From positions 64,888 to 126,482 of IMG/VR virus record IMGVR_UViG_3300037882_001257: 61,595 bases of DNA; one strand, 5' to 3'. Made by a program: the position numbers and the translations under genes. Each line of letters begins with the position of its first letter. Positions within the stretch are counted from its first letter, which is position 1. Below, piece after piece: positions 28,863 through 47,650 of this stretch. Source of the DNA: a virus. The notes below the pieces were generated by a model. That model had not been told where the DNA came from and did no database searches. It saw nothing but the letters and a program-made list of their open reading frames with translations.

Positions 28863-29459
28863 CTAATCAATGTAGAACGGCCCACTCAATGTTGCTGTCT
28901 TAGCTGCGTCAAGTATCGTTAGTAAAGTTCCGTCACAAGCGTAAAAACCCTGCTTCGTGTATTTTATAAGCCTACGAAGCGAAGCCTGAACATTGCCTAT
29001 TTTATGGACTCTTAATCGTTTACGCCCAAGGTCATACAGTGTCCAAGGACCAACCCATATGTCCTTACCGTCTGTTATGAGTTGACAGTTAGTATAGTCA
29101 AAGTCATCAATCACCTTTTCAGGTGACTCCCAGACTTTGTGGATTAACTGTACCTTAAGCCCATTAGTAACAAACGTGGTGTTGTGTGGCCTGACATCCC
29201 GACTATCGCCATGTGATTCAATCAGGTTCGCGGCTATATCTAGATAGCCCTGCCCCTTAAAGAATATGTCAAAGTCACTATCTAAAGGTTGACCAAGAAC
29301 AGTCCTTCGCAATGCCCCGCCGCCTAGCCAAGTTCCCTCGTTCAGAAGGACTCGACCGAACAGCTTACCATGCAGTATTTCATACAACGGAGTCTGAATA
29401 TACGGCTTACCAGTAGTCTGCCAAACAAAATCTTCAAGGTCATACTTAAACATTAGCAT
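28863..29459 (-). CDS. class II (CCA-adding/poly(A) polymerase-like) nucleotidyltransferase, head domain only
   Basis: GGGALR..G..DSDFDIFF; FDYTNCQ (resembles DFTIN). Confidence 0.7.
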   Translation of the reverse strand: MLMFKYDLEDFVWQTTGKPYIQTPLYEILHGKLFGRVLLNEGTWLGGGALRRTVLGQPLDSDFDIFFKGQGYLDIAANLIESHGDSRDVRPHNTTFVTNGLKVQLIHKVWESPEKVIDDFDYTNCQLITDGKDIWVGPWTLYDLGRKRLRVHKIGNVQASLRRLIKYTKQGFYACDGTLLTILDAAKTATLSGPFYID

Positions 29460-33594: not shown

Positions 33595-33596
33595 AG

Positions 33597-33691
33597 TCTA
33601 CGTGACAAGAATCGAACTTGCGACCCATGCTCTCTTTGCACAGGCTCCTGCTTCCAAGGCAGGTGGATTACCAGACTATCCCAACACGTAG
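33597..33691 (-). tRNA. tRNA-Pro(TGG) with long variable arm
   Basis: C1-G72, A73, loop CT-TGG-AA; 25-nt variable region. Confidence 0.8.
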
Positions 33692-34597: not shown

Positions 34598-35169
34598 CGT
34601 TGTCCGACGTTTATCGTAGTCGGACTGACCACGGCAACCGCTGCTCTTTATTTTTACATCAGGTGCTAGGTTGGCTAAGGGCCGAACTGATGAGTGTTCC
34701 ACACCCTCATGGGTCGTCTACACCAAACCGTATAGCTCAATCACTCAAAATGGCAGAACCATTTCATTTCTATTGATAGTTTGTATCCCGTATAATACTT
34801 ACACAGTAATCACAACATCTTGAGTTTTCGTTACTGTCGTAGGTCTCTTAATCTCTCTTGACCAATAGTTCACGCCCCATACTCCATTGCTACGAGGATG
34901 GATGCTGCAATCTGCACCAAAATGAGCATCCTTATCAGTCACTACCATATAATGTACGTCTCTAGCGGTGACATAGATGCGAATATCTTCAAAAGTTTCT
35001 TCGCTCTTTATACCGGCCCGCCCATAAACGTAAGTGATTTTATCACCCCTTTTGATAGTTCCATCCACAAAGTCGCTCAGGTGGAGCTGCTTTCTATAAT
35101 TAACGGGGACCGCCTTACAACCCTCAACGTCCTGACGAAACATATAAATTCCTTATGTTAGCATTCTAG

Positions 35170-35239
35170 GATTCACTAGAGGACTCGAACCTCCGCTTTC
35201 GGCGTTCTGGCCGACGTTCTACCTTTAAACTAAGCAAAC
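35170..35239 (-). ncRNA. tRNA-like RNA with 6-nt anticodon loop
   Basis: canonical D- and T-arms; TCGGC-CAGAAC-GCCGA. Confidence 0.7.
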
Positions 35240-44608: not shown

Positions 44609-46341
44609 TTTTGGAAAATCTTCCTGTAGTATTCTACAGTTTTTTGTAAATCTTGCTCAAAAGACGACGAGTATTGAAATCCCATAGCTGATAATTTTGT
44701 GTCTACCATGCTATATCTTAGGTCGTGCCCCGGTCGGCTACTATGAAAATCGACCATCTTACATTTAAATGGTAAGTCTAAACACGCTGCGATTAGATTT
44801 ACCAATTCAAGATTGGTGATTTCTCTTTCCTCTAGAACATTGTACTTTTCATGCTTAACACCGTTGCTCATTAAGAAGGTTAAAGCCTCAGCGAGCCTGC
44901 CAGCATAGGTATAGTGACGAGAACCAGAAACAGTTTTTGTCTTATCAGAATGAACTAAGACTGGTTCCCCTAGGAGAATTTTTTTAACTGTATCAGGAAC
45001 AAATTTTTCAATCCTTTGTCTTTCTCCAAAAATGTTCATAGTATGAACTATAGAAATATTCATATTGTATGTAGTTGAATATGCTAAACAAATTTCTTCG
45101 GCGGCGGCTTTTGAAGCGGCATATGGATTAGGAGAGTTGTAGCGGTCCCACTCCTTGTAATCGTAACCATCGTAAGCAGGGCCAAATACCTCAGCGGTTG
45201 ACACATGAATCAACTTTGCCTGTTCTTGGTTTCTGCGACAATATTCAAGAAGATGGGTTATTCCTAAAACATTACTACGTATAGCATCTAACGGGCGTCG
45301 TATAGATTCGTTAACATTGGTAAATGCAGCTAAATTAATAACACAATCTATCTTACCAATACTAACTCTCTCTGCACTAGTAAACTTGTGGCTTAAATCC
45401 TTAACTAGTATCTTTACTCTAGAATTATTAATCGCGCCTATTTCATTAAGGTTAGACGTATTTTCTTTGACTATCAAACAAAGATTGTGAGATGTGTTTT
45501 TCAATAAATATTCAACTAAATGAGTACCAACAAGGCCGTTAGCCCCAGTGATTAAAATAGATTTCGGATGATGTGGGACGACATTGTACTTAACAATGTG
45601 AGAGCCTTTTTCGTGTTCTATAAACTTACCGAATGGGCCATCGCAAATCACATGCCCACCACTCCTTACAATATGTCTCTTTGACACTAAATCAATGTCA
45701 TTATATCTATTTTTTTGCAAAAAGTGTGAAAAAATGAAACTATCATCCCACCTATCATAGTTACGAAAAGCACCAGATTCAAAACACTCAAAAACATCCT
45801 GTAAGAATCTATTAGCCGATGGCTTGCTCATATCAAAACACACGACGCCGGCCTCGACGCCCATTCCGTTGTTACGGCGATACGTCCCTGTATGATGAGC
45901 AATAGACTTGCCTTTCATAATGAGTTTGACTTGGGTGGTGGTCAACCTCTTAGTGAAATAACAATCGCAATCTAGTAGAATTACATAACCCTTGGGGTTT
46001 ACCGATGTTATACACTGTTGAAGAGTGGCTACCTTACGAAACCAGCGCGCGGCCTGCCTTCTGTATTTATCAAATTTATTACCATTAGTATATGAATATA
46101 CAGCCGTACCACCGTATTCCACAGGAATAATATCTGCGTTATTCTTGCACCAGTCTTGAAACCACTTGTATGACAATATATCTGAGACCGCTGCAAAATC
46201 ATATGTTTCTTCTATTGGAGAGGTGAGATTCTCTCCCCCTATGAAAATTTCACCGTCTACATTAAACTCACCAAAAGAGTCTAGCAGTCTTTTACCGGTT
46301 GCTTCATACAGCTTTTGGTTGAAAGTGGTAACAAACAACAT
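44605..46341 (-). CDS. fusion of a GT-A glycosyltransferase and an NDP-sugar dehydratase
   Basis: N-terminal LLDCD..EAG..WDDS..HEKG; C-terminal GANGLVG, STAEVFG, YAASK, RPGHDLRY. Confidence 0.8.
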   Translation of the reverse strand: MLFVTTFNQKLYEATGKRLLDSFGEFNVDGEIFIGGENLTSPIEETYDFAAVSDILSYKWFQDWCKNNADIIPVEYGGTAVYSYTNGNKFDKYRRQAARWFRKVATLQQCITSVNPKGYVILLDCDCYFTKRLTTTQVKLIMKGKSIAHHTGTYRRNNGMGVEAGVVCFDMSKPSANRFLQDVFECFESGAFRNYDRWDDSFIFSHFLQKNRYNDIDLVSKRHIVRSGGHVICDGPFGKFIEHEKGSHIVKYNVVPHHPKSILITGANGLVGTHLVEYLLKNTSHNLCLIVKENTSNLNEIGAINNSRVKILVKDLSHKFTSAERVSIGKIDCVINLAAFTNVNESIRRPLDAIRSNVLGITHLLEYCRRNQEQAKLIHVSTAEVFGPAYDGYDYKEWDRYNSPNPYAASKAAAEEICLAYSTTYNMNISIVHTMNIFGERQRIEKFVPDTVKKILLGEPVLVHSDKTKTVSGSRHYTYAGRLAEALTFLMSNGVKHEKYNVLEEREITNLELVNLIAACLDLPFKCKMVDFHSSRPGHDLRYSMVDTKLSAMGFQYSSSFEQDLQKTVEYYRKIFQK

Positions 46342-47024
46342 TAGTAATCAAGGCCCATTTCTTTTGCTGTATCAACCCATTCTTTAGCGTAATCACAATT
46401 TTGGTGATTTTTAAACCAAGCTCCACCATTAGTATAGTGAATTACATTTGGTAGTTGAGTGGGCTTCTCATACTCACCCTCAAGCCAATTCCACGTTATC
46501 GGCAGCCACCCAATCTCTTCGTCTCGAAGCCACTGAAACTGATGTAGCTCAGCCCCAGACGCTTCGTTACAATGATTCAACGTCAACTGAGCATTAGATG
46601 GATGACCACAATTCCACAGAATAAAACTCGACCAGTTTTTACGTGGGAACGCTTGCTGCACCTGCCCGTCCATCTTTATAGTATGTCTAGGAACGTAGTC
46701 GTGCTGTACTACGTGGATGGCTTTATCTGGTTGAGCATAAGCATAAGACAGTAACTCTTCAACATCTGTATTAAACAGCATGTCGCAGTCACAAAATAGG
46801 GCTATACCCTGGTATTTCATCATCCAGGGCACCATAAATCTCGTAAACGCAAACTCTGTAGCAACCTGTTCATCCGTTGGCCGAGTGTACAGATTCAGCT
46901 TTCTAAGAAACTGCTGTTTTAGAGGTCTTATGCGCACCTTAGAATTGTATTTACGAATAGAATATTCACATACTTTATACGCATCTTGTTCACGAGAATC
47001 CCAACCAATGAATACGTCTAGCAT
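46341..47024 (-). CDS. GT8-like glycosyltransferase
   Basis: FIGWDSRE, TEFAFTRF, FCDCD, PRKNWSS, HYTNGG. Confidence 0.8.
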   Translation of the reverse strand: MLDVFIGWDSREQDAYKVCEYSIRKYNSKVRIRPLKQQFLRKLNLYTRPTDEQVATEFAFTRFMVPWMMKYQGIALFCDCDMLFNTDVEELLSYAYAQPDKAIHVVQHDYVPRHTIKMDGQVQQAFPRKNWSSFILWNCGHPSNAQLTLNHCNEASGAELHQFQWLRDEEIGWLPITWNWLEGEYEKPTQLPNVIHYTNGGAWFKNHQNCDYAKEWVDTAKEMGLDY

Positions 47025-47071: not shown

Positions 47072-47097
47072 AAAAAAACCTGCCAAAAGGCAGGTTT
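47072..47097 (-). terminator. intrinsic terminator after the tmRNA
   Basis: AAACCTGCC-TTTT-GGCAGGTTTTTTT. Confidence 0.85.
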
Positions 47098-47099
47098 AG

Positions 47100-47446
47100 T
47101 GGAGATGGGCATATTGAAATGCCGTCCTAATTGTTATCCGCGACAGCTTCTACATACTTAGGTCGCTTATTTTAAGCGGGCGACCTCGCTGATATGTCTC
47201 TCCATAAGTCTCCCGCACTTAATTTAGGCAACAAGTGCAGCTTCGATTGCGTTCTCGGTTACTGCGTAGGTGTAACCAACCTTGTCGGCATTGAAAGCCC
47301 CGACATAGCTTTGCGCCAAGGCGCGGGTGCGGCTTAGTAGACCGCTTACTTCGTTCTCATTTGCATTTGAACTGTTTTGGCTTTTACGTGGCTCCGCACG
47401 GTATGCGACTATTGTTTCAAATAATCAGTCGAAACCTGTCACCCCC
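47100..47446 (-). ncRNA. ssrA: tmRNA
   Basis: 5' GGGGGTGACAGGTTTCGAC; 3' GGCATTTCAATATGCCCATCTCCA with G3-U70; PK1-like element; tag frame ANENEV..AALVA*. Confidence 0.92.
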
Positions 47447-47650
47447 ATATTCTAATATACACCGCTTTCTGCCAATTCCTCTAGTGAGACATATTCAGGG
47501 TCGGCCGGATACATTTCGCCATACATAGTAACAGCCAATTCAGCGAATGTAGCCAAAGCGAGAACACCAGATTCTAGCCCTATTTCGTTCTCCGTAAAGA
47601 ACTTGGCAATCATATCGAACAATTCCTGCTGCTGTTCTTCAGTTAGATTC

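Follow-up and report, generated by a model that had tools for sequence, protein, structure and literature searches.

A phage tmRNA with a predicted 46-codon tag frame that runs through conserved RNA hairpins

We analysed a 61,595-nt stretch of phage DNA (hereafter, the window), which is part of a 126-kb IMG/VR virus record estimated to be 84% complete, and find it likely that it encodes a working, one-piece tmRNA that depends on host factors and carries a 46-residue tag inherited in a small clade. As judged by sequence comparison, the long tag frame is an inherited, selected feature of this phage clade, with 43-46 codons in five syntenic lineages.

The tmRNA gene and its tag frame

The first-pass annotation had proposed a phage tmRNA at 47100-47446 and suggested ARAGORN and an RF00023 search as a check. 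Both find the gene, ARAGORN with a different tag. Besides 34 tRNA genes, ARAGORN calls one tmRNA in the window, at 47099-47446 (minus strand), and RF00023 matches end to end at 47097-47446 (minus strand; model positions 1-374) with 89.4 bits and E = 2e-33, the gathering score being 47. The main features, from 5' to 3', are as follows.

47454..47463, minus strand: extended -10-like element (GGTGTATATT box), located 8-17 nt before the start of the tmRNA (like boxes in relatives)
47097..47446, minus strand: tmRNA (ssrA), one-piece form, 350 nt by the Rfam match (ARAGORN; Rfam RF00023)
47440..47446, minus strand: acceptor stem 5' strand GGGGGUG, with G3 of the G3-U70 alanine identity pair (sequence, pair list)
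47403..47428, minus strand: helix 2, 5' strand, limits approximate (Rfam alignment)
47387..47400, minus strand: pseudoknot 1 (PK1) remnant, a 4-bp hairpin CGUG/CACG (alignments with relatives)
47365..47386, minus strand: A-rich linker, presumably unpaired, with the frame-setting context UUCAAAU at its end (equivalent context in relatives)
47362..47364, minus strand: resume codon GCA (Rfam alignment; aligned with the resume codon of relatives with unambiguous tags)
47227..47364, minus strand: tag reading frame, 46 sense codons, ANEN... to ...AALVA (translation; homologous open frames in five other lineages)
47126..47161, minus strand: helix 2, 3' strand, holding the conserved CUAAGUAUGUAGA box (Rfam alignment; alignments with relatives)
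47108..47123, minus strand: T-arm with a 5-bp stem GGCAU/AUGCC and an unusual 6-nt loop UUCAAU (sequence)
47101..47107, minus strand: acceptor stem 3' strand CAUCUCC, followed by discriminator A and then CUA instead of CCA (sequence)
47076..47097, minus strand: intrinsic terminator, immediately 3' of the tmRNA (terminator prediction)

The tRNA-like domain of the window gene has a 7-bp acceptor stem with G3-U70, a T-arm and a discriminator A, the latter at 47100 being probably the mature 3' end; no CCA is encoded, and CUA stands in its place. Since a compact nucleotidyltransferase-like ORF at 28866-29459 has no Pfam match, we make no claim of phage-encoded CCA addition. No SmpB gene was found in the 126-kb record at its estimated 84% completeness. 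The T-loop is atypical, with 6 nt versus the usual 7. The same UUCAAU loop was found in 100 metagenome stretches (L131-L210 are metagenome contigs), and the stretches that were checked include tmRNAs scored by Rfam at 87-174 bits. Because full-size tmRNAs of 151-174 bits carry it, this 6-nt loop is a recurrent natural variant.

In the window, PK1 has lost its second stem, as it has in the closest relative, L235, and only the 4-bp hairpin is left, whereas a full PK1 is retained in the relatives L238, L261 and L236, and the second stem is also found in relatives with 9-residue tags. The gene is collinear and does not show the order of a two-piece (permuted) tmRNA (RF04321, RF01849), in which the acceptor piece lies upstream of the coding piece; permuted forms are present only in other phage contigs. 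Terminators equivalent to that of the window stand 3' of the tmRNA in L235, L236, L238 and L261, and GGTGTATAAT-like boxes occupy the matching upstream position in the same four. The GGTGTATATT box may thus act as a promoter element, and a consensus scan upstream of the window tmRNA returned no full -35/-10 promoter. Elsewhere in the window, a tRNA that ARAGORN leaves untyped, with an 'anticodon' of two bases (ga), lies at 35169-35239 (minus strand; Rfam tRNA score 48.3 bits), and an over-long 96-nt tRNA-Pro(UGG) lies at 33596-33691.

The Rfam alignment sets the resume codon of the model at GCA (47364-47362), as had been proposed, 14 nt downstream of the GCC that follows the PK1-like hairpin. 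From there the frame runs to the stop TAA at 47226-47224, and translating 47224-47364 (minus strand) reproduces the residues and the stop of the first-pass annotation exactly. The other two frames of the coding stretch contain 3 and 1 stops. Between the stop and the 3' strand of helix 2 lie ~62 nt, or ~100 nt if helix 2 is counted up to the T-arm, so that the ~95 nt previously said to remain for PK2-PK4 were a fair estimate.

How far the frame itself speaks for a tag was assessed by shuffling the sequence that separates the resume codon from helix 2, with dinucleotides preserved, 20,000 times. In 6% of shuffles a frame stayed open for at least 46 codons, and a tag whose last five residues are all A, V, L or I arose in 0.09%. 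In a control with phage relatives that have 9-residue tags, ignoring the stop let the frame run for 15-46 codons in total (median 28). Hence, with openness over 46 codons arising in 6% of shuffles, the open frame by itself is weak evidence, and the degron-like end is the non-random part.

For the window, ARAGORN itself reports another tag, of 14 residues, encoded at gene positions 231-275 (window 47172-47216) and thus downstream of the TAA. That this frame is the real tag is highly improbable: its source is the ARAGORN output, yet it starts ~150 nt past PK1, has no resume context, ends in SPA and overlaps a post-stop hairpin that is conserved at the nucleotide level. Furthermore, in L235 ARAGORN takes the frame and the stop of the long tag, calling only its last 22 residues, and the comparative data contradict the 14-residue frame. 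Because ARAGORN mis-called or missed the tag in every member of the long-tag family, automated tmRNA annotation under-reports such forms.

Conservation of the long tag in related phages

Next to the window tmRNA lies a GT8-like gene (46341-47024, 227 residues), with which a search of a large protein collection returned three closer proteins of 64%, 61% and 59% identity. Their contigs share the gene order of the window, namely RuvB-like, nucleoside-deoxyribosyltransferase-like, a gap, GT8-like and a glycosylation cluster, and the gap between the deoxyribosyltransferase-like and GT8-like genes holds a tmRNA in L235, in L236/L237 and in L238/L239/L240. A fifth lineage, L261, was reached via the deoxyribosyltransferase-like gene. 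The RF00023 scores are 108.7 bits for L235, 52.7 for L236 and L237, 119.2 for L238, L239 and L240, and 70.7 for L261. The tags were read from the conserved resume context.

L235:9645-9782: tag of 46 codons
L236:9696-9824: tag of 43 codons
L238:9685-9816: tag of 44 codons
L261:1904-2032: tag of 43 codons, resume codon GUA

The GUA resume codon is also used by some relatives with 9-residue tags. A further long tag, of 39 codons, is found in L158, an unlinked phage-like contig with a tRNA array (tmRNA of 87.4 bits). In many closer homologues of the flanking genes there is no tmRNA between the deoxyribosyltransferase-like and GT genes, which there abut each other. On a 1,902-nt Logan contig (SRR31655999), a 51%-identical deoxyribosyltransferase-like gene is followed by a 450-nt gap containing a 42-residue ORF; this gap may hold another long-tag tmRNA, as a sixth syntenic candidate.

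Stops or frameshifts in homologues, which the first-pass annotation had named as counter-evidence, are absent from every homologue found: the frames of 46, 43, 44, 43 and 39 codons are all open. Frame 0 is free of stops in 6/6 lineages, compared with 1-5 stops in each of the other frames. The five syntenic tags end in A-L-[AV]-[AV] and that of L158 in FAAA. All relatives, whether their tags are long or of 9 residues, have UUAAAU, UUAACU or AUAACU in front of G[CU]N. The tags of the window and L235 agree at 27 of 45 aligned residues and show 11 synonymous codon differences; nucleotide differences number 11, 12 and 22 at codon positions 1, 2 and 3, and both indels are exactly 3 nt long. The dN/dS is ~0.33 for window/L235 and 0.68 for L236/L238, figures that, like those on covariation below, rest on pairs or triples from five or six lineages and are mutually confounded. 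For the tags of the window and L158, a local peptide alignment scores 41, where shuffles average 22 (p = 0.003); shifted frames and nucleotide comparison stay at background, and BLASTP finds no similarity between the two tags. In the middle of the tag, identity between the two subgroups is only 20-31%; by inspection, this part is acidic in the window and L235, and rich in Ser and Lys in L236, L238 and L261. As to its tRNAs, L158 has an 85-nt tRNA-Pro(UGG) with a long variable arm (L158:3392-3476) in the array after the long-tag tmRNA; it and the window thus both carry an over-length tRNA-Pro(UGG), with no detectable genes in common.

G3-U70 is kept in all five syntenic lineages, with acceptor positions 4-7 covarying, and the T-arms are canonical in L235, L238 and L261. 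In L236 (L236:9605-9960) the T-loop lacks UUC (AGCAUAG) and the D-loop region lacks GG; its acceptor stem is heavily covaried (GGGCCAA/UUGGUCC), with G3-U70 and the 43-codon tag retained.

These features bear on the reading that the RNA is decaying or does not tag, for example serving as a decoy that soaks up host SmpB or AlaRS, the long frame being an untranslated by-product. Such a role has been proposed for the TLD-only RNA of mycobacteriophage DS6A, so that a phage RNA consisting of the TLD alone is known (PMC4131195, PMC11915505), and the non-canonical T-loop and reduced PK1 of the window would suit it, as would the T-loop of L236 without UUC and the low Rfam score of this lineage (only 52.7 bits). 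However, an open frame, a degron-like end and a helix-5 loop that contains the stop would be superfluous in a decoy, yet the syntenic lineages retain all three. The conserved resume context, the covariation of the acceptor stem around a retained G3-U70, the canonical T-arms in three lineages and the recurrence of the 6-nt UUCAAU loop among high-scoring bacterial tmRNAs likewise argue against it. We therefore judge this reading quite unlikely and retain that of a working tmRNA.

More distant relatives were reached by several routes. In IMG/VR, relatives of the GT8-like gene have 50-56% identity, and no tmRNA lies within 4 kb of it in these relatives. Among ten whole records of such relatives, three carry a tmRNA elsewhere, beside tRNA-Arg, with a 9-residue tag AE..FA[IL]AA, and a pattern scan returned ~50 phage tmRNAs of this 9-residue type, many of them circularly permuted. 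In helix 2, PK1 and resume context they are recognisable homologues of the window tmRNA. The permuted (two-piece) tmRNAs include L082:9743-10055 (minus strand), L231:300-597 (minus strand) and ~20 more of L079-L127; the acceptor piece comes first, followed by the GGGG 5' end within ~12-20 nt, and Rfam tmRNA_permuted scores are 91.7 and 101.8 bits. At L210:1461-1492 and L093:2001-2038 (both minus strand), a helix-2 3' strand, T-arm, acceptor 3' strand and T-run occur with no GGGG 5' piece within 60 nt, and Rfam finds no tmRNA at either locus; the L210 T-arm is identical to the odd T-arm of the window. Each may be a TLD fragment or belong to a two-piece form whose coding piece lies far away. Beside the L210 piece lies a tRNA with anticodon CUA (L210:1737-1813, minus strand; ARAGORN label Pyl), which may be a phage-carried amber suppressor. 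In their flanking regions, L158, L210 and L093 have no genes in common with this phage. L147:91-483 (minus strand) is a full-size tmRNA with all pseudoknots (Rfam 174 bits) and 38 codons from the canonical resume codon, of which ARAGORN calls only the last 16; its tag may be another one above the published limit of 35 residues.

Exact and degenerate DNA patterns from the window tag and T-arm returned no close relative in viral contigs, and peptide-based scans of viral and metagenome contigs returned none. Three genome-contig matches to a tag-core pattern had no tmRNA and were discarded as chance, and the 88-residue upstream gene has no useful homologues.

RNA structure within the frame and origin of the tag

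The structured elements inside and after the frame were read from the sequence and from comparison with relatives.

47313..47324, minus strand: in-frame hairpin GCGC-CUUG-GCGC, kept in L235 via a compensatory C-G to A-U change (comparison with L235)
47283..47305, minus strand: in-frame hairpin UGUCGG...CCGACA, identical in L235 (comparison with L235)
47256..47278, minus strand: in-frame hairpin UGGUUAC...GUAACCG (comparison with L235)
47215..47238, minus strand: helix-5-like hairpin GCACUU/AAGUGC, whose loop holds the stop UAA at 47224-47226 (sequence)
47193-47206, minus strand: conserved small hairpin UAUG-GAGAGA-CAUA (U-A to C-G compensatory change in L238)
47161..47216, minus strand: sole structured module past the stop, a candidate H-type pseudoknot GCGGG/CCCGC plus GGUCG/CGACC (inferred, read from the sequence)

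In L235, 7 pairs of the stem at 47256-47278 are kept, two of them through double (compensatory) changes despite changed residues. A short stretch upstream may pair with the loop of the 47283-47305 hairpin to form a pseudoknot, and in each lineage a stretch upstream of the central hairpin could pair with its loop in this way. In L236, L238 and L261 the central hairpin is built from three unrelated stem sequences. RNAalifold predicts hairpins at matching places, with compensatory changes, for window/L235 and for L236/L238. Compared with column shuffles, the consensus folding reaches z scores of -5.7 and -4.5 for the two pairs; with codon-based alignments these are -4.4 and -3.0, and versus shuffles of whole codon columns -2.6 and -2.1. 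Folded alone, the coding stretch of the window is no better than its shuffles (z = -0.12). The hairpin with the stop in its loop is also predicted in L236/L238 and was read by eye in L235 and L261.

The first-pass annotation had the tag displace most of the pseudoknot ring. What stands of this is that the part after the stop has shrunk: with nested-structure tools applied to the five lineages, only one small module, a hairpin or pseudoknot, is seen where the PK2-PK4 ring would follow the tag, and conserved hairpins, which may form pseudoknots, are found in the frame instead. Because these hairpins of the coding stretch are conserved by compensatory changes, the comparison indicates that the ring is not simply displaced and that the tag frame passes through folded RNA.

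The start and end of each long tag repeat one motif. In L238 this is a 20-nt repeat with 18/20 bases matching, in L235 the same four residues occur twice with synonymous differences, and L261 has F[DE]AAL twice; the C-terminal motif of the window matches the N-terminal motif of L235. The simplest and most likely reading of these repeats is that the tag segment and its hairpin were duplicated long ago, the first copy then losing its stop. The ancestral tag would have had 11-12 residues, close to the tags of the 9-residue relatives. After the duplication, two constraints would have acted on the stretch, which had to keep its RNA helices and also to keep the frame open. From a four-sequence alignment, the in-frame UUG at codon 16 had been considered a mutated UAG stop; this was not confirmed with more sequences, and the duplication model is preferred.

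A functional tmRNA could also resume later, either at the internal GCC (giving a 21-residue tag) or at a GCA 13 codons before the stop, which would make the length of the tag ordinary and the upstream copy a relic that is open by chance. In favour of this, each lineage has a GCN codon in frame 10-13 codons ahead of the stop, and the distal motif copy looks like a short tag that is complete in itself; ARAGORN chooses the internal GCC in L235, and the nucleotides flanking this GCC are unusually conserved between the window and L235. However, the internal GCC is part of a hairpin stem, and L236, L238 and L261 lack a counterpart of it. The distal candidates have no common upstream context, whereas the proximal site is preceded by a context of the UUAAAU type and matches, in alignments, the true resume codon of the 9-residue-tag relatives. 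Moreover, the first 25-33 codons, if untranslated, would have no reason to stay open in six diverged lineages, and later resumption leaves both the multiple-of-3 indels and the synonymous differences between proximal and distal motifs without reason. Altogether, we consider later resumption improbable and prefer resumption at the proximal GCA.

Proposed function and comparison with known systems

We thus propose the following mechanism for a working tmRNA that resumes at the proximal GCA. Host AlaRS would charge the RNA, and host SmpB and EF-Tu would bring it to stalled ribosomes. Translation would resume at GCA 47364-47362 and read 46 codons, since no stop occurs before 47226-47224, and in doing so would melt several conserved hairpins, until termination at the UAA in the loop of the helix-5-like hairpin. 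The rescued protein would gain Ala and a 46-residue stretch whose last residues, AALVA, form a degron of the ClpXP type, and would presumably be degraded via its C-terminal ALVA or ALAA end. In studied tmRNAs the frame is set by the five nucleotides upstream of the resume codon (PMC3968760). In E. coli a hairpin can substitute for PK1, and PK2-4 are dispensable for tagging (PMC3968760), which makes the reduced PK1 and ring of the window gene plausible.

We lean slightly towards the view that the extra ~35 residues are tolerated as a spacer separating tag ends of the ordinary kind; to a peptide function in their own right we give clearly less weight. One single conserved peptide function appears unlikely, because the middle of the tag differs strongly between the subgroups. 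The conserved property is rather the length of the tag, which may follow from the RNA structure. Only tentatively do we suggest that the long tag is a selected module of this marine-type phage clade, in which one RNA stretch would serve both as structural ring and as template for a ~35-residue insert between two motif copies. If so, proteins from stalled ribosomes in infected cells would meet a fate different from that of host-tagged ones; they might reach another protease or adaptor, or the two motif copies might engage a dimeric adaptor. The long Mycoplasma tag reportedly directs proteins to the protease Lon.

Compared with E. coli-type SsrA (RF00023), the window tmRNA shares the tRNA-like domain with G3-U70, helix 2, the A-rich linker with its frame-setting context and the resume codon GCA; its tag likewise begins with AN.. 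and has a hydrophobic, Ala-rich degron end, and its stop likewise lies in the helix 5 loop. Unlike in standard SsrA, the tag has 46 residues instead of the usual 10, PK1 is a hairpin, the frame crosses helices in place of PK2-PK3 and only ~62 nt separate the stop from helix 2. The 6-nt T-loop, the missing CCA and a phage without an SmpB gene are further differences.

The phage tmRNAs of L075-L128 (IMG/VR; 9-residue tags, standard and permuted) are homologous to the window family in their 5' part, especially in PK1 between L238 and L075, and these phages share the GT8-like gene at 50-56% identity. Unlike the window family, they have short tags and a full PK2-PK4, lie elsewhere beside tRNA-Arg and are in many cases permuted. 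Among published phage tmRNAs, the tag of the Bxz1 type has ~25 residues. A tmRNA gene on a large phage with many tRNAs is a trait shared with mycobacteriophages Bxz1, Cali and Catera, Bacillus phage G and DS6A (TLD-only) (PMC4131195). Published phage tmRNAs show no sequence relationship to the window gene: 50,697 GenBank phage records gave no match either to the tmRNA (distant mode) or to the 15 kb around it (near mode), and the L238 tmRNA matched in GenBank phages only the tRNA-like end of Enterococcus phage tmRNAs.

Natural tmRNA tags have 8-35 residues (PMC8012679, PMC3968760), and in a 2025 database paper the commonest length is 10 and the minimum 2 (PMC11915505). The first-pass annotation was thus right to place the 46-residue tag beyond the typical length. 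The conserved tags of 43-46 residues extend the published range and make this family the longest conserved tag that we found on record, with the frame and conserved helices overlapping. A tag frame through conserved helices is a layout that the tmRNA reviews consulted do not describe, and it places the same nucleotides under a structural and a reading-frame constraint. It thereby offers a natural test of the distance that a ribosome can translate into the ring of a tmRNA, and of whether tagging requires PK2-PK3 to remain folded. The phage gene also provides a compact system for asking why large phages carry a ribosome-rescue RNA, be it for extra rescue capacity or for an altered fate of the tagged proteins.
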